Notes under the pieces: generated by a model
Seen by the model: only the letters and a program-made list of their open reading frames with translations
What the model was told of the DNA's origin: nothing
Databases searched by the model: none
Shown: positions 31,401 through 54,275 of the stretch, one piece after another
How positions within the stretch are numbered: the stretch's first letter is position 1
How the letters are laid out: each line of letters opens with the position of its first letter
Made by a program: the position numbers and the translations under genes
NCBI GenBank assembly: GCA_039621445.1
Contig: CP154954.1
Location: 15,147,805 to 15,211,804, forward strand
DNA from: Euglena gracilis
Lineage: Eukaryota
Reading direction: 5' to 3'
Length of the DNA: 64,000 nt

Positions 31401-32317
31401 AGGCCTTGAATAAAATCAAGGACTTGCTCCTCGAGAACGTGGTTCTCGATATCGCGGATCCATACAAACCGTATGTCCTGGAGGTCGACAGCAGCGATTA
31501 CGCTGTTGGCGGGGTTCTTAGCCGGCATAATGCGGCAAAGGAACTCCGACCTGTGGTTTTTTTCAGCAGGAAGCTACAGGGCGACAACGGGAAAGGACAG
31601 GTTAAATGGAGCATTCGCGAAAAGGAGACATATGCCATTGTGCTAATTCTCCAGAAATTCCGCAGCTGGATAGCCAGCAGCCTTGTCCAGATATTGGTGT
31701 TGACGGATCATGAAGCCTTCAACACTGGTATACCGAGGACCTGAACAAGGCCATGTCATCAGTTGGCAGAAGATGCCGATGGCATGAGTTCTTGAGCCAG
31801 TTTAACCTGGTGGTAGTTTATACCCCAGGTCATACGCAAAAGGTTGCGGATCCTCTCAGCCGAGCCCCCTGGTATTGTCCTGGGAACCCGGATGAGGGTG
31901 ATGCGACTTTTCATGGCAGCCATGAGGCTGACCAGTTCGCACGTGGATCCGACGCTGCGGACAACATGCTCGATTCACTACCGGTTTCCCGGGTGTATCG
32001 CAGCATCGCCATTTCACCATTGCGTGGAAGGCGCCGGCGTGGACGCACTGCCGGACCCCGTCGCATTACGCGTACGGAAACTCCTACCCCCCTATTTTTC
32101 CGCGAATGGGATTATTCGCGTGACCCTATATATAGTACCATTGTGAATAGACTTCGTAATGGTGAATCCATAGAGAATTACTCTCTATCACCATTGCGGC
32201 TTATTTTCCGGAATGATTCTGGTTATAAATATATGTATACCCCAAGACCTGGTTGATGATGTGATTTTGAGCTATCACAACCATGGTCACCCTGGGGCCC
32301 CCAAACTGCTTTCACTA
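28438..32317 (+). pseudogene. pol: Pol of family E: protease, spacer, N6-MTase-like domain (about 29880-30290), RT, RNase H, integrase N-terminus
   Basis: VIDTG, ILGYPFL; IDAFSS..W..LWMHPPP.LIPDVVEKI..LLIP..W; LDYRYLN, DLEDGFHQ, YIDD; VDSSDYAVGG, EKETYAI, LTDH; YHNHGHPG; frameshifts or stops near 30020, 31287, 31716 and 32235. Confidence 0.9.
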
Positions 32318-33002
32318 TGTTCCCGCCCGTGGGCGCCCGAATTGTTTCAATTCAACGGCTTTCCGGCTTCTCGACCGCTGCGAGCGGCGAAAAAGCCGTG
32401 GAAAACGGCTGAAAAGCCGTGTTGAACAGCGAAGATGCCGTTTCTCCGTGCCCTTTTGGCGGAAAAGCCGTTTGGCCGGCGGCACTGGCGCAAAAGGCGG
32501 CTTTTTTGTACTCCGTCGCGGAAAACCGACAAGGAAGGAAGGGACACCGCGGGCGAAGCACAAAGGCCTTGGGAAACTGAGGCCCCCCCTTCTCTCTCCG
32601 CCGGCCCACGACGCAAAAAAAAACGCCCATTTTCTTTGCTGTGGCCTTTTTTTTAACATGGCTGGCTTTCCCCGTTTGTTTCGACAACATATTTGCCAAC
32701 CCCTCAACTAACAAGGAAAAGCAACTCTCATCGCAAAGTGTTCGTGACAAATTGCGGGACAAAACTGTTCTGGAGTTCTGGGACAAAAGTGCGGGACATC
32801 TCAAAAGAAGGGTTGCTGTCACTGCTGTGCCTCCGCCACTTTGTTCTGCAACGAGTGCAGTATAAGCTCTTGAAAAGCAGAAGCGTATATCTGGCCGAAT
32901 TGCACCATTTCTCGTTCAGCTGTCGGGCAGGGGAAAAAATTCCTCTACGAAAAAGAGGAGTCCAGAATGAGGCTCACAACCAGAACAAAACATGCATTGC
33001 AC
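32318..33002. repeat. Unidentified insertion starting TG that interrupts the E integrase; contains a 65-bp motif also found near 59004-59067
   Basis: Integrase similarity stops at TGTTCCCG; gtactcc.tcg.ggaaaaccga.a.gg.aggaagggacaccg.gggcgaag.acaaag occurs twice in the window. Confidence 0.45.
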
Positions 33003-33320
33003 ACATGGTGGCCATCATGGGGCATGATGGCAGATGGCCATCCTGGGTTGTGATGGCCATCAAGGGTCATGATGGACATCAAGGGTCATGATGGCCATCA
33101 CAGGTCATGATGGCCATCAGGGCCATCAGGTGTCATCATGGCCATCATGGATATTGATGGGCATCAAGGGTCATGATGGCCATCATGGGTCATGATGGCC
33201 ATATGGGTCAGGATGGCCATCATGGGTCATTATGGCCATCATGTCATGAATATGGGTCAGGATGGGCATCATGGATCTTGATGGCCATGGGTTGTGATGC
33301 ACCTCATGACAACCATGGAC
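33003..33320. repeat. 9-bp-period palindromic minisatellite (catgatggc/catcatggg type)
   Basis: Dense ATGATGGCCATCAT-type units. Confidence 0.92.
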
Positions 33321-33513
33321 AGAAAAATGGCCCTAAAGTGCTAAGTGGGGGGCGAAAAAAACAAAAAAAGCAAATATCCCCAAACTGGAAAAACCAAATC
33401 CAACAAGAAACATTTTTTTTCAAGAGCTTTGATGGAAGGAATTGAACAAACTCTTTACAATCAGGGGTTTTTTCAGACGGGGGGGGAGGGGATCGGCAGA
33501 CACCCACCAACAT

Positions 33514-33750
33514 GGCCAAAAATGCATGAAATTGCACCTCTTTCAAAATTTTCGAGGCCAGAAAAGATATACTCACCAGCCCGTACCCCACCCCCCCAGT
33601 GGGGGGGGGGCACGGGGTCCAAGGGCCACCAAAATTGGCCAGAAATGCATGAAATTGCACCTCTTTCAAAATTTTCGAGGCCAGAAAAGATATACCCACC
33701 AGCCCGTACCCCACCCCCCAGTGGGGGGGGGGCAGGGGGTCCAAGGGACC
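33514..33750. repeat. Direct repeat, two copies of about 120 bp
   Basis: ggcca.aaatgcatgaaattgcacctctttcaaaattttcgaggccagaaaagatatac... at 33514 and 33637. Confidence 0.9.
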
Positions 33751-34244
33751 CACCCACCCCACCCCCTCCCCCCCGGGGAGGTGTCCAAGGCTTAAAAAAA
33801 AAACCCTGTTTCCAATCACCTGCGTTCATGGGGGAACCCATGGTCAGGGACCATAGGCCACTGTAGAACGGCTGGTTCAACATCAGGCTTTTGCTCAAGG
33901 ACCTGGGGGGGGGGGGGCTAATCGGCTGGACTCTGGAAAAAAAATTGACTTGCTAGACCCCCCCCCTCCACCCCCCGGTCCGGGGGTCCCCGCAGCTGGA
34001 AAAAATTTTCCTGCGAGGTGGAAGTGAGGTTTTTAATCGGTCTTTGGCTGATTTTGTTCCAAAAATTCCCCAAATTGGACTAGCCGCAGTCCAGCCCCCC
34101 CCCCCTCCAGGGGTACTGCAATCCCTTAAGCAAAAGCCTGTTCAACACGGAAGGTTGAAGTGCTTGTGCAGCGCAACTTCAGGCTCAACTTTTGCTCGGT
34201 CTTCCGAGCATTCAGGAGCCACAGTGAGGGACATTGAATGAATG

Positions 34245-36241
34245 CTGCACCCCCATCTCCGGCAGAAGTGCAACCACCGTTAGGGGATGAACCCCTGCCG
34301 ACAGAGACATATGTCGCACCGGCTACAACGGAGGTTCAACCTCCCGTAGCACCTGCGCCAGCGGTTGTGGAGGATCAACCTCCTCGACCGGATGTCGAAA
34401 TGGAACTGGAGGAAGTACCCCCACGACCACCGACACCGCGCAGGATCCCTGCCGTCCCGAGGACAATGGCAGAGTTTATGGGAGTGTCAGCGCCTGTGGA
34501 AGCACCGATTCCGGTGACGACCACAGCACCACGCCCCGTCGGGCAGGATGACCCTGCTCGGCGCAGGGCGGCTGAACAACCCCAGGAACGAGTGCCGACC
34601 CCTCGGAGCGTCATGCGCGATCCAGCGGTCATTATGCCCGCTTCGCCCAGACGGCAAACGTCTGCTCCGGCACCATCGGCTCCTGATACCAGGAGGAAGC
34701 CACAGGCGTCGCCTCCTGATTCCGGGAGTGCGAAGCCGAAAGGAGGCAAACCGGGTGCTGTACCCTTTAAACCCCCTGCCAAAGGCGATGATGGGAAACC
34801 ACCACCGAAAGGTAGCGCTGGAGGTCAGACTGGCGGACAGTCGAAAGGCCCTACGACAATGCACGACTATTCAGCCGTTACATCGTCCGGGTACGGCAAG
34901 AGCAAACCGAAAGGTAAGGCTCATGGTCGACAGGCCCAATCTTCCGCCGGATCGACGGATGAGGAGCAGGATGAATCTTCTTCACCTCCCGTGTCTGCGG
35001 ATGCCCATCTCTGGACTCAGGATATCCTGACCAGACTAGGCACCGTGGAAGAGAGGACGAAGAAACTGGCTGCTATTAGGCACCAGAAAGGGTCACATAA
35101 TCGATGGATTCAGCCCCTCTTCGTCCGAGGAGAACCTTTCCACTATGTCCCGGAACATACCTGGACATTCTGGAACAGGCGCTCACCCAGAGTACTGGCA
35201 CAGTACTTTGGCGAGGATTGTGTGTTGGATTTCCAGCACGGCACGTCATTTGCCTGAACGTGCACCGTGTGCCACCATCTGCGGCACTACCAACCGCTTG
35301 TGCATGTGTGCAAGCGGCAGGTGCAATCCACGACGTTCCATCACAGGGCATATGTGCCGAACTGTGTGGCGCTCGTATGTGGCGAGTGCCTGAACGCCTG
35401 GAAGCACAGCTTGAACTACTCCTACAGTGAGAATGCTCACGACAGGGATATCCCTGCCTTGTGCATCAACTGTACAGGGGCCAAGTTCGTGCAGACTGCT
35501 GATGGAGCAGTCACCACCATTGTCCCCCAGCACTTGGAGACACTGGAGAAGTGGAAGAAGGAGTACAAGCAGGTGGAAGGCCGCCTGAACCACTCCGACT
35601 TCCGAAAGGTAGAAAGCTACCGCCACACGGGAATGGCCCGTGAGTTCCAGACAAACGCTGGGGCAATGCGCCTCGCCGTCGAGGAACACGCCAAGGTAAG
35701 AATGCCTTACCTCTGGACCGATGGCGACTGGGAGACACAGGTTTACCCCCTGTTCTCCAAGCGTCAGCACGGCGGATACGCCTTGCCACTGTGGTCTCCT
35801 GAAGAACACGATTTAGGGGACTTCAGAGGTTGGTTGGCGGCTGTATTACGGCCCCATACTGCAAGAGCTCGGACAGCGAAGTGGATGTATGACATCAACT
35901 TCAAGCAGACCCCGGGGATGCCCCCGCAGGTGTCTGCGAATCACCCCCGGATGAATTACATCATCTGGCCGGTGATGCTGCCCAGAATTTTCTGGGAACA
36001 GCTCCAACGGTACCTTCAGCACATTGCTGACCGTACCAGGGAGAAGCTGCCGGACAGTTGGATCAAGGACTGGGAGACCCCATCCTTTGGTGTCAAAGAT
36101 CCGGAGCACAACACCATCCGGAGCGAATAAGCTCCGCAGCGTTCCCCACGCCAACTGGAGTTGGTTGAGGACCCATTAGGGGACCCTCAACACGACTATT
36201 GGCGTGAGGTGCGCGAACGCCCAGCCGATAAAGGCAGGTGA
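34245..36241 (+). pseudogene. Accessory ORF Z, copy A2 (stops at 35255 and 36128)
   Basis: ORFs 34238..35257 and 35267..36130 are in one frame and match 41822-43450. Confidence 0.7.
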
Positions 36242-36356
36242 GGTGGCTGTAAGCGCCAATGCGGCGTCTTTCAGAAACCTCGTCAGGTATTTGCCTGACA
36301 CCCTGTTCGGGTATTTGCCCGAACACCCCTTCGAAGACCCTTTGCGGTATATATAT

Positions 36357-37084
36357 TATATACCGCCCGAAAGGCAATGGTAGAGCCGAGGCAGCCGTGA
36401 AATCCGTTGTCAATATCGTTGCCAGGGTTGGTATTAGCACACTCACCGTACAAAATTGTTTTCGGACGAGACCCTCCGGCCATAGGGGATATCCCCTCGG
36501 AGAGACCCGACCGAAGTAGTGTCAGCTGTGAAACGTGGTTTGCAGAAGTGGAATCACTCCGCTCTGCAGTCCAATCACGTGTCACAGAAATTCATTCCAA
36601 CAAACGGAAATTTTTTTTACAAAACTTCAACACACCCGTGTATAGTCCAGGTCACCGCGTGTGGGTACGGAATAACCGCACCCGCATGCAATCTTCCAAG
36701 CTAGATCATCTTTGGCTCGGCCCATGCGAATTTTTGGAGAGATTAGGTAGTATCGGGCGATATAAAGTTGCCTTGCCCAACGGGATTGAGGACGTCCATA
36801 TGGACGACTTCAGACCGTACCTAAGCCCCCCAGACGGAAAGGCTATCACCTGCCTATATTTCAAGCCCCGTTCCAGATTACCTGAAACGGACGACTTTGT
36901 GGTCGATAAGATAATAGAGCACAAGGTCGACAGGGGTGTGCACTACTGGAAAGTTCGCTGGAAAGGGTATGGGCCAGAGGAGGACACTTGGGAGCCAGCA
37001 TCCAGTTTTGTTGGACATATCCAGCAGTATTGGAAGCTGTGGAACAAGCGCAATAACATAGACAAAAACATAAACACTTTCTGA
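36357..37084 (+). pseudogene. pol: Integrase C-half + chromodomain, copy A3 (about 74-bp deletion near 36415)
   Basis: FVVDKIIEHKVDRGVHYWKVRWKGYGPEEDTWEP is a canonical chromodomain pattern. Confidence 0.9.
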
Positions 37085-37275
37085 AACGATTTCGTTTCGG
37101 AGAATGTGTGTGTTTTATGTGAATGTTTCGCGTTTATACCCACCCCTGCACTCATCTTCTGTCTTTCTCACAGAGTTTTTGATTAAGATAGAAGCCTTCT
37201 TTTTTCAGTGCACCAGCACTCAAAGCTACTGACAAAAAGGTTTCCCTTTGTTGCAGTCGTCGTTCGGGTAGCATC

Positions 37276-38792
37276 ATGCTGCCTGGGCGCGGACCTGGAC
37301 CAGGTCCACCATGGCCGCAGCCTCCTGGCGCGCCATACCCCCAGTACCCTCAGTATGCTGAGGCCCCGATTCCGGGTGCCCCACATGCTGAGAGGGTTTC
37401 AGCCCCGGTATTCGCCGCGGCTACCAGCAGCCGGTCCGCATATGCGGCACCAGATCCATCTGCCGTCCAGCAGCCGGCACCCCAGCCACCAGTGCAGCGC
37501 AGATTGCGCCTGCCCCCGTATGCGGGAGAGATGATCTTCCGCACTACGGAGACTTTGGAGCGGGCGATGTGTATGTGCGCACACCCCCCAACGGATCCCT
37601 TTATGAAAGCCCTTTGGGATGCATACTGTGCTCAGTTGTTGGTGGTAGCCAACACGCCTGTGGCTCAGTGGTGTCCCTGTGGTCAAGCCCTGATGACGGG
37701 AGACGGTATTTCTCGTGGGCATCCGATTCCGGATTCAAGCCTGGCGAGACAATGATGGACCTTGGCGTGTATGTGCCGTCCATGCTGCAAACGCAGAGGA
37801 CGGTGGGATGCCACACCGTGCATATCTGTGAGCACACGCCCCCACGGGTAGGTGAGGCTGTGCATGTCCCACCTGGGATGACGAGAATTTTTGCTCGCCC
37901 GCCCTCGCCGCAGCGAATGCCGCCGCGCGAGCCGCCAGCGGAGCAATTTGTCTCGCAGTACGCGACGCACGCGGATTACCCGCGCGGCGCACGCGTGCTC
38001 CCAGCCGGACAGTCGGACGTGCCCCCTGAGGCATACGTCCAACACATGTTCGTGCACTGGATGCCACAGGCATCACCGGTCGCCCCTGCCCCTGGCGTTG
38101 AGCCACGGCGGCAGGTGGAGTCCATAGTGGTGGAGGATGAACCTCCCCACAGTGTGGCAGCCTGACCGCCCAGTGCACCTCCTGTCCAGACCGGGGATAT
38201 CCCCCGTCGGCAGGAGGCTCCCCACTACCACATGGCACCTCCGGGAACCGAGCAGGATGAGCTTGCTCGGCACTTCCTGCAGGAGCCAGTATTCGCGTCT
38301 GAAGAGCACCGGACGAGGTATTACGCCTCTCTGGCTGCCCTTCAGGGATACACCCCCTACCATCCGTACCAGCCGCAGCTGCGGGTGGCAACCCCGGTTT
38401 TACCCGGTGAGCCCCCGGCAGGTGTGGCAGTATTACCTGCCACCCTGAAGCGCGACAGGGCTACGGAGAACCTTACCCCACAGCCCAGGCGACCCAGCCC
38501 ACGGGACGCGGAAGGCGGTGTGGCGAGGCAGGTGGAAGCCAGCCAGGATACCCCGACTGGACGACCACCGGCAGAGGCACAGGTGGCGATGAGCCGTCCT
38601 GTTGCCGCAATGCCACCGCCGATCCCTCCGGTATGGAAGGAGCCGCGACCCCCTGCGTCGAAGCCAAGCCCACGCCAGGCTCCTAGCCAACGCCCAGCCA
38701 CGCCATCACCGCGACGTGCAGCGGATCGGCAAGATCCCTCCCCAGAGATGGAATGGGAAGGAACCGAACCGACTGCGGCACCGAGCGCCTGA
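37276..38792 (+). pseudogene. Accessory ORFs X (37276-38165, frameshift near 37700) and X2 (38232-38792)
   Basis: Complementary frameshifts in A1 and A3 allow one roughly 296-aa X to be reconstructed; X2 is in frame after a TGA. Confidence 0.55.
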
Positions 38793-40449
38793 CCCTCTGG
38801 TATTCGCCAGATGGGGAAGGACACTGGCAAGGCTGAGGGCAAAGGCAAAGGAGAAGGCAAAGGCGTTTGCCGGCAAAGGTAAGGGTGAGGGCAAAGGTGA
38901 GGGTAAAGGTAAGGGTACAGGACGTGAGGAGGAAGAACAACCAGCGGAAGTCCTCTCGGACTTTGAGCAAATGCTCAGGTTCAAGGAGGAGCTGGAGGAC
39001 GAAGGCTGGCGAATGCAGCATGATTACCATGTTGCAGGAAACCGCCCCGTCACCCCTCCACAAGCTGTCATCGATGTGGTATTACACCACACTGAGAACA
39101 GAGTCAGACAATTCCATTACGGAATTGATCTGTACGCCTTCGAAGGTGAAGGTGGCAGACCCTTGCTGGATGCCCAGCCAGGTTTGTGGGAGCTCTGGTT
39201 TTGGCTGGGATACCCCTGCCAGAACTGGAGGCTCTTCAGCGATTCCACTGGTCGCAGTTACCTGCACCAGTTAGGATTCCGGGACCAGCATGTGTTGGCC
39301 CGGAGGCTGAAGGCCTACTTCGAATGTATTCACTCGGTAGGACCCCTCAGAGTCCAGTGGAAATACTACCCCCTGAACCCCGACATCGAACGCCTGATCG
39401 AGGTGTTGTGGTGCAACAACCTCCAGGTTTGGCTGGTGAGCCATTACGGCTCCACCTTCCGCGTTAAGCGTGTTTCCCTGGCTTACCCACAGAGGTATGA
39501 CCTCTGTTGTAAGTACTGCGGGCAGGAACTTCCTGTCGACTTCTGGGGATTCGGCGTCCGCGGAAGTCCTCCACCGCCTCGTGATAACCCGGGCCTGAAG
39601 ATGGGACGCCGCATGCTTATGCATGTGTGCCGCGACGCCCCGGATCTCCAGGGCAAAAGTCACCGCGTCCGCAAGCAGCGTGTTTTTATGCTGCACCAGT
39701 TCTGGTGGCGAGCCTGGACCACCTACGTCATGGAGGTGTATGTACATCTCCGTGACCCCCAGGACGACAGGCCTGGTATGGAAAGCTTGCCACCGGATTA
39801 CGGCGATCCCATTGAGGGTCCTCGTCGTCGTCGGGTCATCGCCGACCTGCGCCGCAACTGGCACCTGGCTGATATCAGCCTGGAAGAACACTTGCGGCGA
39901 CAGTTCGGCGGTACCCTCGACCCGGAGGTATTCCTCCAGTTGATGATGCACCCGAAGGCCGTCCTCGACCTGCGTATGCCGATTCTGGCATGCGTTCAGG
40001 AGTTAAAGGATGGCTTTTTCGAGGTCTGGACGGATACGTGTTACCTCGGATTCCTGGCCCGAACAGGCCTGCCAACGCCTGGGTGCAGCCATCATGGCCG
40101 CCACCCTGGCCCAACAGCGCCAGCAGCAGTACGCTGGCCTTTTACAGGCTGCCGGATACTCAGGGATGCCGATGGCATCCCGACGATCCTCGTTCGCCCG
40201 AGGATCTGCGTGCCTTCATCGCCCCGGAGGATGAACCTCTGGCGCGAAGGAGACGTGAGGCGTCAGTCGCTTCCACCACCGCGATTCCGCGGCGGGAGGA
40301 ACGCGAACGCAGCCCCTCCGTCACAATTCTGGAGGCAGCGCCGCCGTCTCCGACAGGAACGGCTGTATCCTTGGTCTCTGCCCCGCGAGCGGCAGGGGAA
40401 CGATCAGTTTCCCCGGCCCCCGCGGCGGCTCCCGTCTGTCCACCGGTAG
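38602..40449 (+). CDS. Accessory ORF Y (615 aa, unknown; GKG repeat, aromatic-rich globular core, CxxC..HxC)
   Basis: Long open frame with protein-like composition over about 38870-40050; complete only in this copy; true start uncertain. Confidence 0.65.
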   Translation: MPQCHRRSLRYGRSRDPLRRSQAHARLLANAQPRHHRDVQRIGKIPPQRWNGKEPNRLRHRAPDPLVFARWGRTLARLRAKAKEKAKAFAGKGKGEGKGEGKGKGTGREEEEQPAEVLSDFEQMLRFKEELEDEGWRMQHDYHVAGNRPVTPPQAVIDVVLHHTENRVRQFHYGIDLYAFEGEGGRPLLDAQPGLWELWFWLGYPCQNWRLFSDSTGRSYLHQLGFRDQHVLARRLKAYFECIHSVGPLRVQWKYYPLNPDIERLIEVLWCNNLQVWLVSHYGSTFRVKRVSLAYPQRYDLCCKYCGQELPVDFWGFGVRGSPPPPRDNPGLKMGRRMLMHVCRDAPDLQGKSHRVRKQRVFMLHQFWWRAWTTYVMEVYVHLRDPQDDRPGMESLPPDYGDPIEGPRRRRVIADLRRNWHLADISLEEHLRRQFGGTLDPEVFLQLMMHPKAVLDLRMPILACVQELKDGFFEVWTDTCYLGFLARTGLPTPGCSHHGRHPGPTAPAAVRWPFTGCRILRDADGIPTILVRPRICVPSSPRRMNLWREGDVRRQSLPPPRFRGGRNANAAPPSQFWRQRRRLRQERLYPWSLPRERQGNDQFPRPPRRLPSVHR

Positions 40450-43400
40450 GTGGGGACGAGGAACTCCCTCAGGAAGGCGAGAACGTGAAGGATATCCTCT
40501 ACGCTGCTCTACCTGCACCGGCACAGCCTCGGCCAGACGAAGCACCCACAGAGGATATACCTGTGACAGCAACGCCTGTCCCGACGGCTGAGCCTCAACC
40601 CGAGGTGACTGGTATGGTCGTCGACGATATCCTCGAAGAACCTACCAGCCCCGCAGCACGCACCTCATTAGGAGCCCGCGTGCTCGGCGCGGTAGTCACT
40701 GGCATTACTGCCGTGGCTGCTGCACTAACGCCACGAGGTGGAGGCGTAGCATCAAGCTCCGCCACTGAGGTCGTGTAGATGCCGGCTGTCGGCGTCCCGG
40801 CACCCCCATCTCCGGCAGAAGTGCAACCAACGTTGGATGATGAACTTCTGCCGACAGAGACATCTGTCGCACGGCTACAACGGAGGTTCCACCTCCCGTA
40901 GAACCTGCGCCACCGGTTGTGGAGGATCAACCTCCTAGACCGGATGTCGAAATGGAAGTGGAGGAGATACCCCCACGACCACCGACACCGCGCAGGATCC
41001 ATGCTGTCCCGAGGACAATGGCAGAGCTTCTGGGAGTGTCTGCGCCTGTGGCAGCACCGATTCCGGTGACGACCACAGTACCACGCCCCTTCGGGCAGGA
41101 TGAACCTGCTCGGCGCAGGACGGCTGAACAACCCCAGGAACGAGTGCCGACCCCTCGAGAGTGAAATTGGGTCGGTGTTTGAATCTCGAAGGACCGCCCT
41201 TAGGGTTGGAGCTGGCCCTGTCCTCCCACACAACCCAATGCCCCCCCCCGCTCCCTGACTTTTCCGTCATATTGCAGCAATCAAGCGGTACTTAATGGCT
41301 CAGGCGCGTGCTCCGCCAGCGTCCAACAATCCTTCGCTTAACGCGAGAGATCGCAGCATTAAATGCATCCCAAAGAATGCCTGCCGCGACTTGGGTGCCC
41401 CCCCTCGAGCTCGCATTGCACCCCGACCCGGGCCCTTCTGCCGCAGTCAACCAGTCCCAAAAAACTGAGGTCGTCGAGGACCCACCCACCCCAGACGCCG
41501 ATTCAATTCCCAAGTCTTTCTCCCCGCCCACCGAGAACGGGTGGCCTCATTCCACAGGTATCGGCCCGAGACCACGCGCATCTGTCCTGTGTTCGGTTGT
41601 CCACCCCGCACCCCTGTCTCCTCATAACACGGTGGGGAACCCCCCCTCTTCCCACTCGTTATTTTTTTCACTACCGCTGTTATCCTTTCTTTACCCACTC
41701 CCTCTTTTTACCCACCAGCTTGCGTCCCTCCACTTTTTTCGAGTTTGTCTCCACGACTAGGTTCCCCCAATGAACCTGAAGCCGCAGCGCTTCTCAACCC
41801 CTTCCCCGCCCCGCGAGCGTCATGCGCGATCCAGCGGTCATTATGCCCGCTTCGCCCAGACGGCAAACGTCTGCTCCGGCACCATCGGCTCCTGATACCA
41901 GGAGTAAGCTACAGGCGTCGCCTCCTGATTCCGGGAGTGCGAAGCCGAAAGGAGGCAAACCGGGTGCTGCACCCTGTAAACCCCCTGCCAAAGGCGGTGA
42001 TGGGAAACCACCACCGAAAGGTAGCGCTGGAGGTCAGACTGGCGGACAGTCGAAAGGCCCTACGACAATGCACGACTATTCGGCCGTTACATCGTCCGGG
42101 TACGGCAAGAGCAAACCGAAAGGTAAGGCTCATGGTCGACAGGCCCAATCTTCCGCCGGATCGACGGATGAGGAGCAGGATGAACCTTCTTCACCTCCCG
42201 TGTCTGCGGATGCCCAGCTCTGGACTCAGGATATCCTGACCAGACTAGGCACCGTGGAAGAGAGGACGAAGAAACTGGCTGCTATTAGGCACCAGAAAGG
42301 GTCACATAATCGATAGATTCAGCCCCTCTTCGTCCGAGGAGAACCTTTCCACTATGTCCCGGAACATACCTGGACATTCTGGAACAGGCGCTCACCCAGA
42401 GTACTGGCACAGTACTTTGGCGAGGATTGTGTGTTGGATTTCCAGCACGGCACGTCCTTTGCCTGGACGTGCACCGTGTGCCACCATCTGCGGCACTACC
42501 AACCGCTTGTGCATGTGTGCAAGCGGCAGGTGCAATCCACGACGTTCCATCACAGGGCATATGTGCCGAACTGTGTGGCGCTCGTATGTGGTGAGTGCCT
42601 GAAAGCCTGGAAGCACAGCTTGAACTACTCCTACAGTGAGAATGCTCACGACAGGGATATACCTGCCTTGTGCATCAACTGTACAGGGGCCAAGTTCGTG
42701 CAGACTGCTGATGGAGCAGTCACCACCATTGTCCCCCAGCACTTGGAGACACTGGAGAAGTGGAAGAAGGAGTACAAGCAGGTGGAAGGCCGCCTGAACC
42801 ACTCCGACTTCCGAAAGGTAGAAAGCTACCGCCACACGGGAATGGCCCGTGAGTTCCATACAAACGCTGGGGCAATGCGCCTCGCCGTCGAGGAACACGC
42901 CAAGGTAAGAATGCCTTACCTCTGGACCGATGGCGACTGGGAGACACAGGTTTACCCCCTGTTCTCCAAGCGTCAGCACGGCGGATACGCCTTGCCACTG
43001 TGGCCTCCTGAAGAACACGATTTAGTGGACTTCAGAGGTTGGTTGGCGGCTGTATTACGGCCCCATACTGCAAGAGCTCGGACAGCGAAGTGGATGTATG
43101 ACATCAACTTCAAGCAGACCCCGGGGATGCCTCCGCAGGTGTCTGCGAATCACCCCCGGATGAATTACATCATCTGGCCGGTGATGCTGCCCAGAATTTT
43201 CTGGGAACAGCTCCAACGGTACCTTCAGCACATTGCTGACCGTACCAGGGAGAAGCTGCCGGACAGTTGGATCAAGGACTGGGAGACCCCATCCTTTGAT
43301 GTCAAAGATCCGGAGCACAACACCATCCGGAGCGAATCAGCTCCGCAGCGTTCCCCACGCCAACTGGAGTTGGTTGAGGACCCATTAGGGGACCCTCAAC

Positions 43401-43450
43401 ACGACTATTGGCGTGAGGTGCGCGAACGCCCAGCCGATAAAGGCAGGTGA
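39990..43450 (+). pseudogene. Accessory ORF Z, copy A3 (Pro-rich N-half, 8-Cys finger, C-terminal domain), interrupted
   Basis: Stops at 40776 and 42314, insertion 41158-41814; C-terminal 339 aa open. Confidence 0.7.
41158..41814. mobile_element. Unidentified insertion of about 657 bp in ORF Z
   Basis: Absent at the same site (cccctcg|gagcgtc) in the copies at about 34605 and 54992. Confidence 0.7.
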
Positions 43451-43565
43451 GGTGGCTGTAAGCGCCAATGCGGCGTCTTTCAGAAACCTCGTCAGGTATT
43501 TGCCTGACACCCTGTTCGGGTATTTGCCCGAACACCCCTTCGAAGACCCTTTGCGGTATATATAT

Positions 43566-44369
43566 TATATACCGCCCGAAAGGCAATGGTAGAGCCGAGG
43601 CAGCCGTGAAATCCGTTGTCAATATGCTTCGCCTTTCACTGGCTGACTCGGGTAAGAATTGGTTATCCGTTCTTCATTGGTGTTTATTTTACATCAATAC
43701 GTTGCCAGGGTTGGTATTAGCACACTCACCGTACAAAATTGTTTTCGGACGAGACCCTCCGGCCATAAGGGATATCCCCTCGGAGAGACCCGCCCGAAGT
43801 AGTGTCAGCTGTGAAACGTGGTTTGCAGAAGTGGAATCACTCAGCCCTGCAGCAGTCCAATCACGTGTCACAGAAATTCATTCCAACAAACGGAAATCGT
43901 TTTTACAAAACTTCAACACACCCGTGTATAGTCCAGGTGACCGCGTGTGGGTACGGAATAGCCGCACCCGCATGCAATCTTCCAAGCTAGATCCTCTTTG
44001 GCTCGGCCCATGCGAAATTTTGGAGAGATTAGGTAGTATCGGGCGATATAAAGTTGCCTTGCCCAACGGGATTTAGGACGTCCATATGGACGACTTCAAA
44101 CCGTACCTAAGCCCCCCAGACGGAAAGACTATCACCTGCCTATATTTTAAGCCCCGTTCCAGATTACCTGAAACGGACGACTTTGTGGTCGATAAGATAA
44201 TAGAGCACAAGGTCGACAGGGGTGTGCACTACTGGAAAGTTTGCTGGAAAGGGTATGGGCCAGAGAGGACACTTGGGAGCCAGCATCCAGTTTTGTTGGA
44301 CATATCCAGCAGTATTGGAAGCTGTGGAACAAGCGCAATAACATAGACATAAACATAAACACTTTCTGA
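43566..44369 (+). pseudogene. pol: Integrase C-half + chromodomain, copy A4
   Basis: Same sequence and lesions as 753-1553. Confidence 0.85.
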
Positions 44370-46350
44370 AACGATTTCGTTTCGGAGAATGTGTGTTTTA
44401 TGTGAATGTTTCGCGTTTATACCCCCCCCTGCACTCATCTTCTGTCTTTCTCACAGAGTTTTTGATTAGACAGAAGCCTTCTTTTTTCAGTGCACCAGCA
44501 CTCAAAGCTACTGACAAAAAGGTTTCCCTTCGCTGCAGTCGTCGTTCGGGTAGCATCATGCTGCCTGGGCGCGGACCTGGACCAGGTCCACCATGGCCGC
44601 AGCCTCCTGGCGCTCCATACCCCCAGTACCCTCAGTATGCTGAGGCCCCGATTCCGGGTGCCCCACATGCTGAGAGTGTTTCAGCCCCGGTATTCGCCGC
44701 GGCTACCAGCAGCCGGTCCGCATATGCGTCACCAGATCCATCTGCCGTCCAGCAGCTGGCACCCCAGCCACCAGTGCAGCGCAGATTGCGCCTGCCCCCG
44801 TATGCGGGAGAGATGATCTTCCGCACTACGGAGACTTTGGAGCGGGCGATGTGTATGTGCGCACACCCCCCAACGGATCCCTTTATGCAAGCCCTTTGGG
44901 ATGCATACTGTGCTCAGTTGTTGGTGGTAACCAACACGCCTGTGGCTCAGTGGTGTCCCTGTGGTCAAGCCCTGATGACGGGGAGACAGTATTTCTCGTG
45001 GGCATCCGATTCCGGATTCAAGCCTGGCGAAACAATGATGGACCTTGGCGTGTATGTGCCGCCCATGCTGCAAACGCAGAGGACGGTGGGATCCCACACC
45101 GGGCATATGCGTGAGCATACGCCCCCACCGGTAGGTGAGGCTGTGCATGTCCCACCTGGGATGACGAGAATTTTTGCTCGCCCGCCCTCGCCGCAGCGAA
45201 TGCCCCCGCGCGAGCAGCCAGCGGAGCAATTTGTCTCGCAGTACGCGACGCACGCGGATTACCCGCGCGGCGCACGCGTGCTCCCAGCCGGACAGTCGGA
45301 CGTGCCCCCTGAGGCATACGTCCAACACATGTTCGTGCACTGGATGCCACAGGCATCACCGGTCTCCCCTGCCCCTGGCGTTGAGCCACGGCGGCTTGGA
45401 ATCCATAGTGGTGGAGGATGAACCTCCCCACAGTGTGGCAGCCTGACCGCCCAGTGCACCTCCTGTCCAGACCGGGGATATCCCCCGTCGGCAGGAGGCT
45501 CCCCACTACCACATGGCACCTCCGGGAACCGAGCAGGATGAGCTTGCTCGGCACTTCCTGCAGGAGCCAGTATTCGCGTCTGAAGAGCACCGGACGAGGT
45601 ATTACGCCTCTCTGGCTGCCCTTCAGGGATACACCCCCTACCATCCGTACCAGCCGCAGCTGCGGGTGGCAACCCCGGTTTTACCCGGTGAGCCCCCGGC
45701 AGGTGTGGCAGTATTACCTGCCACCCTGAAGCGCGACAGGGCTACGGAGAACCTTACCCCACAGCCCAGGCGACCCGAGCCAAGGGACGCGGAAGGCGGT
45801 GTGGCGAGGCAGGTGGAAGCCAGCCAGGATACCCCGACTGGACGACCACCGGCAGAGGCACAGGTGGCGATGAGCCGTCCTGTTGCCGCAATGCCACCGC
45901 CGATCCCTCCGGTATGGAAGGAGCCGCGACCCCCTGCGTCGAGCCGTCCCTTTGCCCCCAACAGACTCACCCCCGCGGCCGTCCGGTATGGAAGGAGCCG
46001 CGACCCGGTATGGAGGAATCCTCCCCTGCTGCTCGAAGCAGCCCCACGACCCAGGCTCCTAGCTAGCAACGCCCAGCAGCACACGCATCATCACCGCGAC
46101 GTGCAGCAGGTCGGCAAGATCCCTCCCAAGAGATGGAATGGGAAGGAACCGAACCGACTGCGGCACCGAGCGCCTGACCCTCTGGTATTCGCCAGATGGG
46201 GAAGGACACTGGCAAGGCTGAGGGCAAAGGCAAAGGAGAAGGCAAAGGCGTTTGCCGGCAAAGGTAAGGGTGAGGGCAAAGGTGAGGGTAAAGGTAAGGG
46301 TACAGGACGTGAGGAGGAAGAAGAACCTGCGGAAGTCCTCTCGGACTTTG

Positions 46351-48673
46351 CTCCCCTTTTTTCCCAGTCCCTTTTTCACCTTGAGTTTTCCCATCAGGTC
46401 CGCTGCCAGCTCCGCGTATCCTGGGATGTAGGAGGAGTAGTAGTTGGTGAATCCCAGGAATGCGCGGAGGGCTGTGATGGTTTTCGGGTCTTCCCACTTT
46501 TCCAGGGCCATCAGTTTTCCTGGGGCTGGTCTCCGTTGTCCTCCCCCCAAGATGTGTCCGCAGAATTCCACTTCATGCACAAAAAACTTACATTTTTTTA
46601 TGTCGGCTACGAGCAGCTGTTTCTTGAGTGCCTCCATGACTCTGCGGATGTCCTTGTCGTGCTGGAGGATTGTTGCCTCTTCCGTTCCCTGCCAAACTGT
46701 GCCTACGATGATGTCATCTACGTAGGGGTTGGCAATGTCTGCGACCTCCTCCAGGCTGTATTCAATGACCCTCTGGAAAATTGGGACTCCGTTTTTCATC
46801 CCCATCACCACTACTTTCCACTGCTTCGTTCCTCTTGGTGTACTACAGCAGGTGTAGGGTCGGGATTCCTTTCTCATGCGTACCTGATGGAAAGCATCCT
46901 TTAGGTCCAACACACTGTACATTGCTCGTTGACCCTGTTGGACCAAGATGTCTTCGATGCGGGGGAGGGGGTTTGCGTCTGTCACCGTGGCCTCGTTCAG
47001 GGCCCTGAAATACACCACCCCCCTCCACTTTCCCCCTTTCTTGGCCACCACTAACGTGGGGCTGGACCAGTCACTTCTCCCATCCTCCACCTTTTCATCC
47101 CTGACCCACTCGTCGACCATGTCCAGGAGTGCCTGTCGGCGTTCTCCGGTCATGTGGATGGGTCTTTGTTTTTTTGCCACCGTCCCAGGTTTGAGTTCTA
47201 TTTTCCCGAAACCCAGTGGACCCCGTTCAGGGGGGTTTGGGTAGATCTTGTCCCTCAACACCACTCCCTCGTAGTCTTTACGCAGCTTTGCGACCAAATC
47301 TGTCACCCTGTCTCCCTCCACAGCCTGCCCTTCAGGTACGGCTATCACCCCCTGGACCCCCTGTGGGGCTTTGCGTTTTCTGGTTACCAGATGCTGGGCC
47401 AGATTTTCCAAAACTGTTTCGTCTTCAAACAAAAATTCTTCCGTTTCACCTGCTTCTGCTGGCACCTGCAGGTTCATGGCCCGCACTTTGCTGATTTTCT
47501 TCAAAATGTTTCTGTCACCCTGTTCCCGTTCTCTTACTCCTTTCCAACTTGTCAGCAGGAGCAATGGTTCCCCTATCAGGGCCAGTGAATGTAGGTGTGG
47601 AAAAACCCCTAAGTGGTGTTGCTCCATCCAGGGATACCCCAAAATGGCATCCACCTGGATTGCCGCGTCGTGGAAGGTCCCCGTGGTTGTCCATTCCCTT
47701 GTGTTGTCTTGGTTGAAAATCTGGGCCGTGAATTTCAGTGTTAGTGTCGTTTCATGCAACCCTCCCCCATCCGTGTGCCGTCGGCAGTGACGAGGGCCAA
47801 GGGGTGGTTTGACACCGTGAAGGCTCCTGGGGGTAGGAGGTCTTTTCTGATCAGGTTGGTTTGGTTTGTTTCACCATTCGGGCAGACCGCACGAATGCCA
47901 ATCAGAAGTTGCTTGGACTTCCCCCGTTTCACCACCTGTCCCAACAGTCGTTCCGATGCTGGCCCAAGCAACCGTTTTGGCAGGTGAACGTTTTCATGGT
48001 GCCTCCGTGGGATTTTTGGCTGTGCCGCAGGCTCTTGTGTGTTTTGTTCATCTTTCCAACCAGCCAAATCTTGGATCAGTTTCTCTGGAATTCGATACTT
48101 TTTGTTTCTGGAAATACTCGTCGTGTTTGAGATTTTCACCCGGTGACCCTTCTGTCCTGGCATCAGGTTGGGACATGTTCTCCCATCACACAGCTTTCCC
48201 TGTATTTGCAGGATATCTGGGCTGCCCCAGATTCGTGTTGGCTTTTTGTGCCCCCAGTCGGAGTATTGACAATAATCCACATCAACAAATGGATATGGTT
48301 TCACGTACTCCCTGTGTCTGAGGTACCCGTGTCTGGGATTTTCCCGCCACCATTTCTGCGGTCGCAGGAATTTCACGATCTCCAGGGCCTTTTTGGCCAA
48401 TGCGTCCCCCTTCTCCAGTTGTCTTGGTCTGGTTGTGAGTGCCAGGCTGAATTCCGTACAGGGAACTCCACAGTCCACCGTGTGGAATTCCCCAGGTTTC
48501 AAAACTTTCTTGTAGTCCCACGTCAAGACATCCACCTGAAAATATGCCTGCCACTTGGGGTCCAGGTCCACTGTCACCACCTGAAACCCCATTTTTTTGT
48601 ATGCTTGGCCCACCGACTTGGTACCACAGAAAAGGTCCAGCATTTTCCGTTTCGGTTCTGCTGCACGGTCCAA
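46351..48673 (-). pseudogene. pol: C5-cytosine MTase + protease remnant + RT (copy B2, frameshift near 47765)
   Basis: ORFs 47741..48673 and 46059..47759; motifs as in B1. Confidence 0.9.
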
Positions 48674-48682
48674 AACGTTTTT

Positions 48683-49471
48683 TCACGGCAGGTCTGTTTT
48701 CCCCAGTGGCTGGTGTTCATCACCCCCCTCCTCTGTCTCCAAAGGTGGAACATGTTGCACCGTCCCGAAGTTGACCTTGGACGTTGAGTGTGGGGGGGTC
48801 ATGTGCTGGTGGAAGCCCGTCAGGTAATCACAGCGTTCCGTGTACCCACACACCAGCAGCACCTCCACTGGCCACTGTGTTTCCCTGCAACCCTTGTCGA
48901 TCCTGCCAAAAAAATTGGTTTTTGCGGGAAAAGTCATGGACATGAGGGTCAGTTTTCTGGCCTGTGGGTACCAAACTCGGTGTTTCCACTGAGGCACCAC
49001 CAAAACTGCGTGGGCCTGGTCTGTCTGAATTTTTTTGATCACCTGTGGGATTTTGTCGAACGGGGGGTTGATCCACAGGAGGCTGCCCTGCCAATTTTTT
49101 TGGAAGGCATCTGTGCCGTGTGGGCTGCCTGGTCCCCACCAACGCGGGAACCGCTTGTCCTGTTCTGTGGCGAAGGCATCCACCTGTGGTTGCAAACCGA
49201 CATGTGAGATGATCTTTTTCACAAAACTGTCCTGCACATAGTACTGGTTGGTGATCCAACGGGAGGCTGCCCGCCCAAATCTGCAGCAAGCCTCCTCCCG
49301 TGGCACCTGAGTCTTTGTGTTTTGTCTTTGTCTGTTTTGTGCTTTCTGGTCTGAACCCCTTGCTCGCTTACCTCCCTCCGTTCGCTGTTTCTGCTGCGGT
49401 AATGGCTCCTTTCTGTCCCCCTGTTCGGTTTGTTTTCTCAGAGAGTCGCCCCTCTCGTCCCCTCCCTCCAT
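48683..49471 (-). CDS. N6-adenine-type MTase-like ORF (copy B2)
   Basis: DAFAT..DAF..W..LWINPPF. Confidence 0.85.
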   Translation of the reverse strand: MEGGDERGDSLRKQTEQGDRKEPLPQQKQRTEGGKRARGSDQKAQNRQRQNTKTQVPREEACCRFGRAASRWITNQYYVQDSFVKKIISHVGLQPQVDAFATEQDKRFPRWWGPGSPHGTDAFQKNWQGSLLWINPPFDKIPQVIKKIQTDQAHAVLVVPQWKHRVWYPQARKLTLMSMTFPAKTNFFGRIDKGCRETQWPVEVLLVCGYTERCDYLTGFHQHMTPPHSTSKVNFGTVQHVPPLETEEGGDEHQPLGKTDLP

Positions 49472-49483
49472 ACCGCAGCTGCT

Positions 49484-52400: not shown

Positions 52401-52945
52401 ACCTGGCGTTCTGTCTCTGCCTCCCGTGATTTCACCTCCCGTTGACTTTCAGCCAACCCAGCCATTGTCTGTTCGACCCGCTGCATCCGCATCTGCAATT
52501 CTTGAAGCACCTGCTCATTTTGTTTCTGCTGGCCGAGTAATCCTATGAGGTGTTGCCCCTGGGTCTGTGTGCTTCCCCCTGCCACTTGCAGCAAACCCTG
52601 GAACCAGTTAGTTTTTTCGTCCAGCAGCCCAGCCACCACCTTCAGGTCCCGAATCTGTTGTCCCAGGTTCTCAAAGTGTCCCTGGTACAGTCTGTTTTGA
52701 TTCGTCACCATCCCCTCCAAGTTTTCAGTTACCGTGGCCAGGTTTGTGGACAGCTCTTCATATCCGCCGTCTGTTCGCCACACCAACCCTTCTGTCCGTT
52801 CCCCCTGTGTAATCAGCTGCTGTTCCAAGCGTGTAAACTGTAGTTCTGTGGTGTTTTGAAGTCGTTGTATCACCTCTGTGGTTTTCTGGTTCACAAACTC
52901 AGTGGCTCGCCTGAAAGTTTGCAATTCCTGCTGGAATTCCGTCAT
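49484..52945 (-). CDS. gag: Gag, 1153 aa, uninterrupted
   Basis: Coiled-coil N-third, Pro/Gln linker, capsid-like core, GKG-rich segment, CYNCEQPGHFKREC. Confidence 0.9.
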   Translation of the reverse strand: MTEFQQELQTFRRATEFVNQKTTEVIQRLQNTTELQFTRLEQQLITQGERTEGLVWRTDGGYEELSTNLATVTENLEGMVTNQNRLYQGHFENLGQQIRDLKVVAGLLDEKTNWFQGLLQVAGGSTQTQGQHLIGLLGQQKQNEQVLQELQMRMQRVEQTMAGLAESQREVKSREAETERQVGTLAGNCDETLKELNHRVQQTQEHFTKAIKGLNARVEQLSEGQQDQTLEQRMTKLSQEMAILTRRLDTLASNDDNKRRFDRLNQEMTGLGHKVEESAQTFRRVLGELQKGVFKTGSQEASDQARLIDMSSTLGQMVNKVGRLEAQLTDLTTRTTLKEAQDSGIWQQQCRSLTAEFHSQIQLWQTKWEATEKRLNELTELTQKTKESFEKSQSYSFSAASSSLSDRRQQGMGKTPETPAPGPVGQLSRRTTEPPSGKGQTQEPQPTAAARQRSPGPATAITGQGLASGPQPEAWAELMGLGGPQPAAPAPQPAASAPQPVTPTGGWGPQSPLTQPREGTRGPPGQLREGTRGPREPVPGVGWDLPDLKTLMVQTVQEEFKKLSIRQDSPVSKTQPPKPQPVFELSADAQPFQPRPKPTDPMLEHQQRLERELLEIKNMMQQQGQQRENTGPSQISQPRTRDMFTWVTEENPGPQNTAGPQFGSTYTPIFHVGAETVVAPVAAQAAPSIGLMMGPVGAAMTKDLVRPLLQGNFADFSLKFPIYLNRLSAGQGPLTDDMKLTILEGSLDETGRLELQRRQERGEKIRYQEFWNWLCQKYEGDTQLAIKEELKNLKPRYDGKLTLGAWREFEARFKLLYSRLEHPSTDDAYALVAERMPEMMRRNCIREQDRSNQDIPTLKLKGLTNVPGVPDATREDVTRLVAATLGADERFLVTTDGTDFIISLNGSRASQLLMMKNGTALASGHQPRFTVVQTKLSLEEMFAKVETELRCQEQSDTFGKNFGGWQNQPREHRSRSSDKRGYVREVKENNSSRPRSKTPPPARSRSNSRKPRPPTPENERQPSGAPQPQPPAPYNQGQSQNQGQSWAGWTTVDYSKGKGKGKGQGSHPDQGKGKGSGKGSGKGNSGKGQPSWQSTQNSGTTGQPRYGPPPDDGRCYNCEQPGHFKRECPQPPRWTQKTAAPQTGQQVAAQGQK

Positions 52946-53703: not shown

Positions 53704-54275
53704 TTTCTTGTGTTAAAAGACCTTTTTCCTTTTTGGGGTTGGTGTGGGGTGGGTCCTTGGGGGGGTCACAAATCGGGCATAAAACACCTGTAGGTCTTGC
53801 TCAAAGCAGCGAAATGCTTTCAAATTGGTGGTCGTGGTCAGTGAAGGTCTTCGGTGCCGGCGAACTGGCGCTTCTTAGGCACACCAGCAGCAACAACTCC
53901 TGCTTCAGACTTCACTTCAGATCACAGGACCAATGCTTGAACAGATAATCAACTTCCACTTCCAATGAAATCTTGACAAACTTGAATTGGCTTGAAACTT
54001 GAACCAAATAGGCCAATGGCAAATAGATAATCAGATTGAGCAAGGACAGAGTAGTGACAGAGCCCTGTGGAACATGTTGTAAAATCGTGGTTAAAATCTG
54101 GTCAGAGGTTAAAATTCAGTTAGGAGGGGATTATCCTAATTGTTTCACCATTGAAACTGTAGGCCCCTGGTTGGGTCAAGTCCCCTGGTTAGTTCTGTGG
54201 GCGCCTGGGTTAGCTTTTAAGGTTAGCGCCTGAGGTTAGCTAACTTACCCGGGCACTCAGCACCCCTGACTCACA
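53557..54275 (-). repeat. 5' LTR (54275-53572) and PBS (53569-53557) of B2
   Basis: TG..CA followed by TGGTAGCAGAGGG. Confidence 0.75.

Follow-up and report, generated by a model that had tools for sequence, protein, structure and literature searches.

Coding segments Y and Z in a locally multiplied, decayed repeat next to chromovirus chromodomain fragments of Euglena gracilis

Organization of the interval

We analyzed a 64,000-nucleotide (nt) window of the Euglena gracilis genome (assembly GCA_039621445.1, contig CP154954.1, positions 15,147,805 to 15,211,804, forward strand), concentrating on window positions 37085-43450, which follow the pol stop of a truncated Ty3/gypsy chromovirus referred to here as family E. 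A sequence-only reading had described this interval as a single 5.5-kb cassette of overlapping sense-strand open reading frames (ORFs), named X, X2, Y, and Z, downstream of the chromodomain. The listed ORFs are present in plus-strand frames, and their mutual arrangement was correctly described: late X, X2, and the start of the Z region (39873-40775) share one frame, and Y lies in another frame and overlaps both neighbors. The single cassette was not borne out, as Z (40800-43559) has a counterpart of 93-99% identity ahead of the chromodomain, at 34245-36416. What the interval holds instead is one period of an array that was duplicated locally and is broken, and Y and Z within it are real, though decayed, coding segments.

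Self-comparison showed that a segment of ∼4.7 kb is present four times in the window (copy a, 1-3432; copy b, 34245-38965; copy c, 40800-46350; copy d, 54632-56738). The period is ∼7.2 kb, with an offset of 7209-7283 nt from copy b to copy c, and the units succeed one another in the order Z, integrase C-terminal fragment plus chromodomain, X, X2, and Y, after which the series starts over with Z. After the chromodomain, the order of parts is an AT-rich spacer of ∼190 nt, X, X2, a Lys/Gly repeat linker, Y, a Pro-rich linker, and Z. The parts of the array are as follows.

1-3432 (+): copy a, with the end of Z, integrase fragment plus chromodomain, X, X2, and linker; 99.8% identical to 42814-45945; cut by the window start
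34245-36350 (+): Z of copy b, with a Pro-rich N terminus, a Cys/His-rich module, and a helical part; 98.1% identical to 54632-56738 and 93-99% identical to 40800-43625
36337-37084 (+): integrase C-terminal fragment plus chromodomain, copy b; Pfam Chromo, E 3.2e-10; 92.8% identical to residues 1015-1236 of the reference protein P0015
37085-37275 (+): AT-rich spacer after the pol stop, read from the sequence
37276-38165 (+): X, a P/Q/Y-rich start followed by a Cys-containing segment, from the frame listing
38166-38792 (+): X2, a 208-codon Pro-rich frame with its stop at 38790-38792, in the same frame as late X
38793-38970 (+): Lys/Gly-rich linker on a 12/18-nt tandem repeat (Tandem Repeats Finder, 38829-38921), frameshifted relative to protein P0013
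38971-40446 (+): Y, with a conserved body of approximately residues 1-330; present only in copy b
39873-40775 (+): upstream extension of the Z frame, 301 codons, overlapping the tail of Y
40800-43559 (+): Z of copy c, the Z of the sequence-only reading, recognized by homology to copy b and split by a 658-bp insertion at 41158-41814
43546-46350 (+): next period, copy c, with integrase fragment plus chromodomain (43546-44366), X, X2, and linker; 97.6% identical to 36410-38665
54276-56738 (+): Z of copy d and its upstream extension, from self-comparison, with a different, noncoding continuation past 56738

Copies b, c, and d diverge by 1-7%, and each carries private indels and stops. In copies a and c, the Y body (38965-40442 of copy b) is replaced by a 7.9-kb minus-strand retroelement piece, which occupies 46350-54276 in copy c and matches 3432-11360 in copy a. 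Positions 1-11821 and 42814-54739 constitute an 11.9-kb duplicate of 99.5-99.8% identity, which reflects either segmental duplication in the very recent past or the assembly of a high-copy repeat.

Frame lengths, composition, and substitutions

The plus-strand stop-to-stop frames of the interval are listed below.

37192-37752 (+): X, 187 codons
37392-38162 (+): X, 257 codons
38166-38789 (+): X2, 208 codons
38593-40446 (+): Y, 618 codons
39873-40775 (+): upstream extension of Z, 301 codons
42317-43447 (+): Z core, 377 codons

Because the GC content of the interval is 55-61%, long open frames come cheaply. Chance was assessed with 500 dinucleotide-preserving shuffles of 37085-43450, in which the longest ORF on either strand was scored. 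The longest ORF had a mean of 226 codons and never exceeded 467. None of the 500 shuffles contained an ORF as long as 618 codons (0/500), and the counts for lesser lengths were 377 codons in 5/500, 301 in 32/500, 257 in 92/500, and 208 in 299/500. By length, only Y and, marginally, the Z core exceed chance; the lengths of X and X2 are within it. The minus strand of the interval also has ORFs of 205-243 codons, and the X2 frame of copy c stays open for another ∼180 codons through the antisense of an unrelated reverse transcriptase (RT). GC content at the second and third codon positions (GC2 and GC3) gives profiles resembling those of real genes for the Y and Z cores; the values for Y (GC2, 0.43; GC3, 0.68) are like those of known pol frames. 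Codon-usage log-odds, trained on gag-pol sequences of the window and biased by the absence of stops, were highest in frame among all six frames for X, X2, and Z and ambiguous for the Y core, although the Y core has homologues.

The sequence-only reading had proposed a dN/dS (nonsynonymous to synonymous rate) check, which was run among the window copies. Substitutions proved neutral in every frame tested, including the known integrase/chromodomain fragment, in which one synonymous and 14 nonsynonymous changes were counted over 186 codons (22% synonymous expected). Since a known coding sequence is also neutral between copies, dN/dS among window copies cannot discriminate and says nothing about the master element. 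The decay of the window copies is that of dead DNA. Trp codons turned into stops twice, independently, in the Z copies; these changes, together with the transitions that make up 58 of 100 sites of difference from the genomic copies in public DNA run X1, fit deamination decay of methylated repeats.

Domain searches gave little. Pfam retrieved only RNase H and Chromo from the three plus-strand frames of 31289-40900, only RT from the minus-strand frames of 40442-47900, and nothing at an E value of ≤1 from the minus-strand frames of 38900-40800 or from Y, Z, X, and X2. No minus-strand domain was thus found opposite Y, and the idea that Y mirrors, in antisense, a pol gene on the minus strand was dropped. 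Rfam had no match in the whole 64-kb window.

Y and Z as coding segments

An exhaustive phmmer search of 1.84 billion representative proteins returned five relatives of Y at an E value of ≤0.001, three at ≤1e-10, and none at ≤1e-30 (range, 1e-18 to 6e-5; 22-56% identity over the whole alignment). Three relatives are short and close (45-56% identity over the alignment; 40% for P0009), and P0011 and P0012 are full proteins of 332 and 470 amino acids, respectively, that are 24-28% identical to Y. Alignment of Y with three relatives gave 14 invariant columns, and the 12 motif residues (Y172, P173, Q174, C180, C183, D190, F191, W192, G193, R197, H218, and C220) form a CxxC...HxC signature around DFWG, with YPQ ahead. 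The reading frame of Y is kept in the relatives P0008 to P0013. Y is a real coding segment with a conserved body of ∼330 residues.

The homologues also bear on how Y was joined to its neighbors. P0013, a cluster mate of the Y relatives, aligns in the Y frame with residues ∼39-131 and in the X2 frame with residues 7-38, crossing the stop of X2; thus, the end of X2, the linker, and Y are one frame in P0013. The shift from the X2 frame to the Y frame falls within the Lys/Gly-coding 12/18-nt tandem repeat at 38829-38921 and is common to copies a, b, and c. At the other end, the last ∼150 codons of Y look out of frame or noncoding, and the Z frame is already open there, a pattern that would fit an indel in a once-continuous Y-to-Z frame.

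Other searches with Y yielded no further relatives. None of 8,000 candidates passed in a word-indexed protein search, the protein atlas gave no usable match, and scans with the Y alignment confirmed 0 of 229 matches in metagenome contigs and 0 of 41 in viral contigs. A metagenome contig scan with the integrase/chromodomain fragment similarly gave 96 pattern matches, of which 0 were confirmed. At an E value of ≤1, Pfam had no match for five of the six Y relatives or for P0002, the transcript-derived protein that matches Z; P0011 gave two subthreshold matches (E values of 0.13 and 0.19). The best match of a Y profile among PDB sequences was a weak one, to the zinc ribbon of an RNA polymerase II subunit (PDB entry 1qyp; E value of 0.64).

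The Z core matches one protein, EG_transcript_25142 of Euglena gracilis (EukProt EP00667; P0002), at 93-95% identity, with 95% for the 377-codon frame at 42317-43447 and 93% for Z of copy b. Where copy b has a TGA stop (35255-35257), P0002 has Trp, and all of the DNA depth of runs X1 and X15 at position 35257 reads G. The lesions differ from copy to copy. Besides this stop in copy b, copy c carries a 1-nt deletion, the 658-bp insertion, and a Trp-to-stop change at 42314-42316, and copy d carries a Lys-to-stop change at 55291-55293 and a 1-nt insertion; 54244-56277 of copy d is a single frame with one stop. Because the lesions differ per copy and the transcript retains Trp, the ancestor of Z was open, which agrees with what the sequence-only reading had put forward as probable from the differing stops. 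Z is a real coding segment.

Z comprises a Pro-rich N-terminal third, a Cys/His-rich stretch, and a helix-rich part. It had no match among PDB sequences and none in Pfam at an E value of ≤1, and its protein atlas scores to RING/C1 clusters (0.78-0.82) lie under the lead level of 0.9. The Cys/His spacing, which might be of a cross-brace (RING/PHD/C1) type, is seen in sequence only. Conjecturing from motifs alone, we regard both Y and Z as probably zinc binding, with Y zinc-ribbon-like.

Z was also described by the sequence-only reading as part of a module that lacks transmembrane segments and is not env-like. The latter description stands, given that no env-related Pfam match was found and that a single borderline hydrophobic stretch is present. 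The former holds with a qualification: that stretch, at 40668-40730 in the upstream extension of the Z frame (Kyte-Doolittle score of 1.72 over 19 residues), is the only candidate in ∼2,000 codons. The 658-bp insertion in Z is private to copy c, has no other match in the window, and lacks a clear target-site duplication. It has no GT-AG borders, and its interpretation as an intron was dropped. A further Z copy is cut at 11821 by the 5' end of the methyltransferase retroelement at 11821-21000.

The spacer, X, and X2

From the chromodomain to the end of Z, the spacer is the sole AT-rich stretch outside integrase/chromodomain coding sequence; individual 60-nt windows of <45% GC are found in Y as well (39060-39139), and in the 658-bp insertion. 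Three polypyrimidine-AG sites lie within the spacer (37155-37172, 37196-37207, and 37241-37257), and an ATG comes next, at 37276. Transcripts of Euglenozoa commonly receive capped leaders through trans-splicing, according to passages of a study on the subject (PMC2920757), and the spacer looks like an intercistronic acceptor region of this kind.

X is split over two frames in copy b. Speaking for X and X2, the whole of X forms a single 359-codon frame in copy c (44342-45418), late X and X2 of copy b make up one frame with a single stop, and X begins with the ATG at 37276. X and X2 as coding sequence are unproven.

The broken pol and a chimeric junction

Upstream of copy b lies the 5' part of a family E element, separated from the array by filler.

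28438-32395 (+): family E chromovirus pol, 5' part only, with RT, RNase H, and the start of the integrase zinc domain; ends at the counterpart of P0015 residue 846
32396-34244 (no strand): noncoding filler between the broken pol and copy b, with tandem repeats and no Pfam match in the three plus-strand frames

Pfam identified a gag-pol sequence here with a zinc knuckle, a Ty3/gypsy RT (RVT_1; E value of 4e-27; 29807-31285), and RNase H (RT_RNaseH; E value of 3e-22; ∼31385-31720). The chromodomain is C-terminal on the integrase fragment of copy b (E value as listed above) and ends at the pol stop (37082-37084). As a reference for family E pol, we used P0015, a 1,236-amino-acid metagenome protein with RT, RNase H, integrase H2C2, rve (Pfam, residues 877-974), SH3, and chromodomain. 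Residues 39-794 of P0015 correspond to 29966-32232 at 95-99% identity and residues 795-846 to 32234-32395 at 63%. Residues 957-1236 align with the repeat copies at 91-93% identity (91% for the copy c fragment at 43546-44366). Residues 847-956, from the rve catalytic core, have no counterpart anywhere in the window, and the integrase is incomplete. The pol copies in the window are thus fragments of a chromovirus member, not intact members.

Between the two halves of pol lie the filler, ∼1.9 kb and rich in tandem repeats, and then Z. All three chromodomain-bearing copies (a, b, and c) begin the integrase at the same residue and share the Z|integrase breakpoint; they therefore descend from one already rearranged progenitor and are not independent. 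The integrase fragment of copy b has a private 74-nt deletion, and copies a and c keep these nucleotides. It is this deletion that places Z and integrase in a shared frame in copy b, and an in-frame Z-integrase-chromodomain fusion protein was dropped because copies a and c are out of frame.

Public DNA contigs covering 33800-40800 show that the Z|integrase junction is chimeric. Nineteen contigs of run X1 and two of run X15 reach 36355 from native integrase sequence, and a 2,182-nt X15 contig continues Z past 36350 into a continuation that, within the window, is seen only in copy d. The sequence that typically follows Z in the family is the noncoding stretch starting at 56739; Pfam had no match in 56400-64000.

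Several further observations concern the family E element and its surroundings. At 33004-33288 and 33504-33747, the filler is made up of tandem units of 19, 28, 66, and 85 nt and a duplicated stretch of 123 nt. Pieces of the filler are found again at 59003-59064 and 60239-60422, the latter with similar repeat units and 3.5 kb beyond copy d. Upstream of the RT, P0015 residues 23-103 gave a subthreshold Dam match (E value of 2.7e-4; 21.1 bits against a cutoff of 28.1), and the ORF of the window that is the counterpart of this region (28438-30078, plus strand) had no Pfam match at an E value of ≤0.01; family E itself may carry a degenerate adenine methyltransferase domain. Long frames at 22699-24675 (minus strand; 658 codons) and 24799-27384 (plus strand; 862 codons) gave only weak, coiled-coil-type Pfam matches, and the latter, positioned ahead of the family E ORF with the zinc knuckle, may represent an N-terminal gag region of unusual length. 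A direct repeat pair at 22145-22516 and 63508-63895 is 80% identical over a distance of 41 kb, with the first member 2.3 kb upstream of the family E gag and the second 6.8 kb downstream of Z copy d.

Copy number and expression

In run X1, the family breaks into 19,945 short contigs on 33800-40800, and the summed contig depth is 2e5-8e5 in all 29 bins of 34034-40800, whereas the first bin has 1.4e4. Every part from Z through the integrase fragment, X, and X2 to Y is very high-copy, and so is the portion that occurs only once in the window. Summed depth is not copy number; thus, the similar depth across parts is weak evidence that they belong to one element. All parts are barely transcribed. RNA run X21 placed 22 of 12.9 million reads, which covered 5 of 30 bins and fell mostly at the low-complexity left edge, and RNA run X24 placed 81 of 8.3 million reads, on both strands and in 24 of 30 bins.

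Neighboring methyltransferase elements

Two retroelements with methyltransferase regions flank or interrupt the array.

46350-54276 (-): fragment of a methyltransferase-bearing long terminal repeat (LTR) element with a gag zinc knuckle, a DNA methyltransferase (DNMT)-like region, and RT (Pfam zf-CCHC and RVT_1), similar to the element at 12-21 kb
11821-21000 (+): element with C-5 DNMT-like and Dam-like regions, aspartic protease, RT, RNase H, integrase, and chromodomain (Pfam Chromo, E 1.8e-11, at 20747-20974)

The element at 11821-21000 matches the Euglena "EpiLTR" type as portrayed in parts of a recent preprint (bioRxiv 10.64898/2026.05.21.726589). The minus-strand fragment, present at 46350-54276 and 3432-11360, shares 50% protein identity with it in the DNMT-like part and 72% at the RT end, and it breaks off precisely where RT meets RNase H. 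A repeat unit of ∼49 bp is present eight times (21422-21872) directly behind the pol of the element at 11821-21000.

Interpretation and alternatives

The reading that we favor, and to which we assign roughly an even chance, is that X to Z represent a decayed post-pol accessory coding region of the family E chromovirus, seen here in a locally multiplied 3' portion. A very high-copy chromovirus family would have carried a long sense-strand coding region after pol, in which X2, the linker, and Y (perhaps from X at the ATG at 37276) and Z were formerly one or two long frames. Y and Z would be "additional ORFs" encoding zinc-binding accessory proteins, expressed from the element transcript via spliced-leader trans-splicing at the polypyrimidine-AG sites after the pol stop. 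One rearranged, already frameshifted 3' portion would then have been multiplied locally at the DNA level, not by retrotransposition; later, another element would have replaced Y in one unit, and that unit would have been duplicated again. All copies in the window are dead, and we infer the long frames of the ancestor, their linkage to pol in the native element, expression by trans-splicing, the binding of zinc, and a function of any kind. A role in chromatin or silencing, including the anti-silencing role that the sequence-only reading raised as a possibility, would be a conjecture from motifs.

Several observations weigh against the favored reading. X to Z are linked to an intact pol in none of the window copies, and the three chromodomain-to-X junctions are not independent. 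Self-comparison for direct repeats found no LTR pair bracketing gag-pol-X-Z in the window, where the element may extend beyond its intact parts, and no primer-binding site or target-site duplication was found in the window. The sequence-only reading had placed the module in the env position; in each of the three chromodomain-bearing copies, X, X2, and Y do come after the pol stop in sense orientation, but the copies are nonindependent and, with no LTR found, the env position itself is not established. X and X2 have no homologue and no Pfam family, even when the N-terminal frame of X is included; their ORF lengths are within chance, and their Pro/Ala-rich composition is uninformative. Indels that shift these frames distinguish the copies, and one of them, an extra G after 37697 in X, is polymorphic among genomic copies, being carried by approximately one-third of the X1 DNA depth. 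Substitutions among copies are neutral, as described above. No spliced-leader read was present among the placed RNA reads, which are too sparse to reveal strand, ends, or a leader. The distant relatives P0011 and P0012 occur as stand-alone proteins on contigs of 2.0-2.5 kb; thus, Y could be a cellular gene or a gene of another element. Finally, the structure prediction and fold search suggested by the sequence-only reading were carried out but gave poor models: the predicted local distance difference test score (pLDDT) was 45 for Y (seven sequences; 67-82 only at residues 110-190) and 33 for Z (single sequence). Foldseek of the Y model against PDB gave no match at an E value of ≤0.001, and a VIA-align wide search gave no chain at a Z score of ≥5, its rows being single long helices.

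A more far-reaching form of the favored reading is a tentative proposal whose probability we put well short of even. It posits a post-pol module of ∼6 kb with a spliced-leader acceptor and its own ATG, encoding two new zinc-binding families, of which Y would be old, and constituting a new class of retrotransposon accessory region. Within this proposal, the age of Y would follow from its 24-28% identical relatives in unrelated environmental eukaryotes, and expression would proceed by trans-splicing rather than by cis-splicing or frameshifting.

The strongest alternative, possible but well short of even, is that Y and Z, with or without X and X2, belong to a different repeat (a mobile element or an amplified cellular gene pair) into which 3' fragments of the chromovirus recombined. 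Under this scenario, neither the Z|integrase junction nor the chromodomain|X junction would be original, and X may derive from an untranslated or LTR-like part of the chromovirus. In its favor, the contigs show the Z|integrase junction to be chimeric, at least three element families are pieced together in the region, with a methyltransferase element in place of Y in two copies, and nested insertions and chimeric elements are reported for this genome in sections of the preprint cited above (bioRxiv 10.64898/2026.05.21.726589). The stand-alone nature of the distant Y relatives and the lack of coding evidence for X point in the same direction. The continuity from chromodomain to X in three of three copies, with an intercistronic-looking spacer, argues for the chromovirus reading instead, as does, weakly, the summed DNA depth, which is alike over the integrase fragment, X, Y, and Z but is not copy number. 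Moreover, copy d continues past Z into noncoding sequence with no further element genes.

It is unlikely that the region is mostly a long noncoding post-pol sequence, as in long-tailed plant Gypsy lineages, whose frames are by-products of 55-61% GC with only short pieces ever coding. The shuffles, the minus-strand ORFs, and the X2 frame running through the antisense of an unrelated RT show how readily frames of a few hundred codons arise here, and X and X2, with neither homologues nor Pfam matches, could be accounted for in this way. Y and Z could not: Y exceeds the longest ORF of all 500 shuffles and has relatives sharing an invariant motif, Z matches a transcript-derived protein with Trp at the stop of copy b, and both cores are gene-like in GC2 and GC3. 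For Y and Z, the noncoding explanation was rejected on the basis of the shuffles, the relatives, and the transcript match.

Least probable of all is that the tandem, duplicated arrangement is partly an assembly artifact of a very high-copy repeat whose real copies are dispersed with other junctions; the near-identical 11.9-kb duplicate, the extreme abundance of the family (19,945 short contigs in X1), and the naming of artifacts as a possible cause of chimeric Euglena elements in part of the preprint (bioRxiv 10.64898/2026.05.21.726589) would agree with it, but copies b, c, and d differ by 1-7% with private indels and stops, like real paralogous copies, and the coding conclusions for Y and Z would be unchanged.

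Significance and comparison with known systems

Coding capacity beyond gag-pol is almost undescribed in Euglena LTR elements. In the 2.4-Gb E. gracilis genome, the LTR share is given as 32.81% in the text and 21.8% in Table 4 of the genome paper, portions of which also assign a further third of the genome to unclassified repeats (PMC11252322). Our literature search found no published description of this post-pol region; the supplementary transposable element libraries of the genome paper (PMC11252322) and of the preprint on Dam-bearing elements lay outside its scope and may list the family. A search for "Euglena" with "chromovirus" found only bioRxiv 10.64898/2026.05.21.726589. If Y and Z belong to the element, the known accessory proteins of retrotransposons would grow by two new families, in a lineage whose elements have already drawn attention for carrying epigenetic enzymes, and the region would offer a test case for expression of downstream retroelement genes by spliced-leader trans-splicing. 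If they belong to a separate repeat instead, the present analysis would provide an abundant, unclassified repeat of Euglena with coordinates and a diagnostic motif and would serve as a worked example of how chimeric arrays can mimic novel element architectures.

Extra ORFs between pol and the 3' LTR, termed aORFs, are documented in plant LTR retrotransposons (Vicient and Casacuberta, 2020; PMC7264820). The likeness lies in sense frames of unassigned function after pol, apparently in many copies of a high-copy family, and in their being dispensable for the basic gag-pol cycle. The Euglena region differs in its euglenid host, its ∼6-kb block, and its lack of env-like features and of a Pfam family; its 3' LTR, and with it a position between pol and LTR, was not found. 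Diverse ORF3 sequences downstream of pol are likewise reported for LTR retrotransposons of bdelloid rotifers (Rodriguez et al., 2017; PMC5408684). The likeness lies in a modular extra ORF after pol, of a type that may be shared with other contexts, given the stand-alone relatives of Y; the rotifer ORFs encode recognizable enzymatic or env-like domains (GDSL esterase, DEDDy exonuclease, and fusion glycoprotein), whereas Y and Z are without recognizable domains.

The Retand lineage (PMC11963269) resembles the Euglena region in an unusually long internal region after pol but is a plant, nonchromovirus lineage. Closest in origin are the recently described Euglena DAM-LTR or "EpiLTR" elements with Dam, DNMT, and chromodomain (bioRxiv 10.64898/2026.05.21.726589). 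On the account given in portions of that preprint, they share with family E the genome and superfamily, a chromodomain pol, and chimeric nested structures, and two such elements lie in our window (12-21 and 46.3-54.3 kb). Their accessory Dam and DNMT domains are of known families and lie inside the gag-pol frame, whereas the extra coding material described here follows the pol stop and matches no Pfam family.

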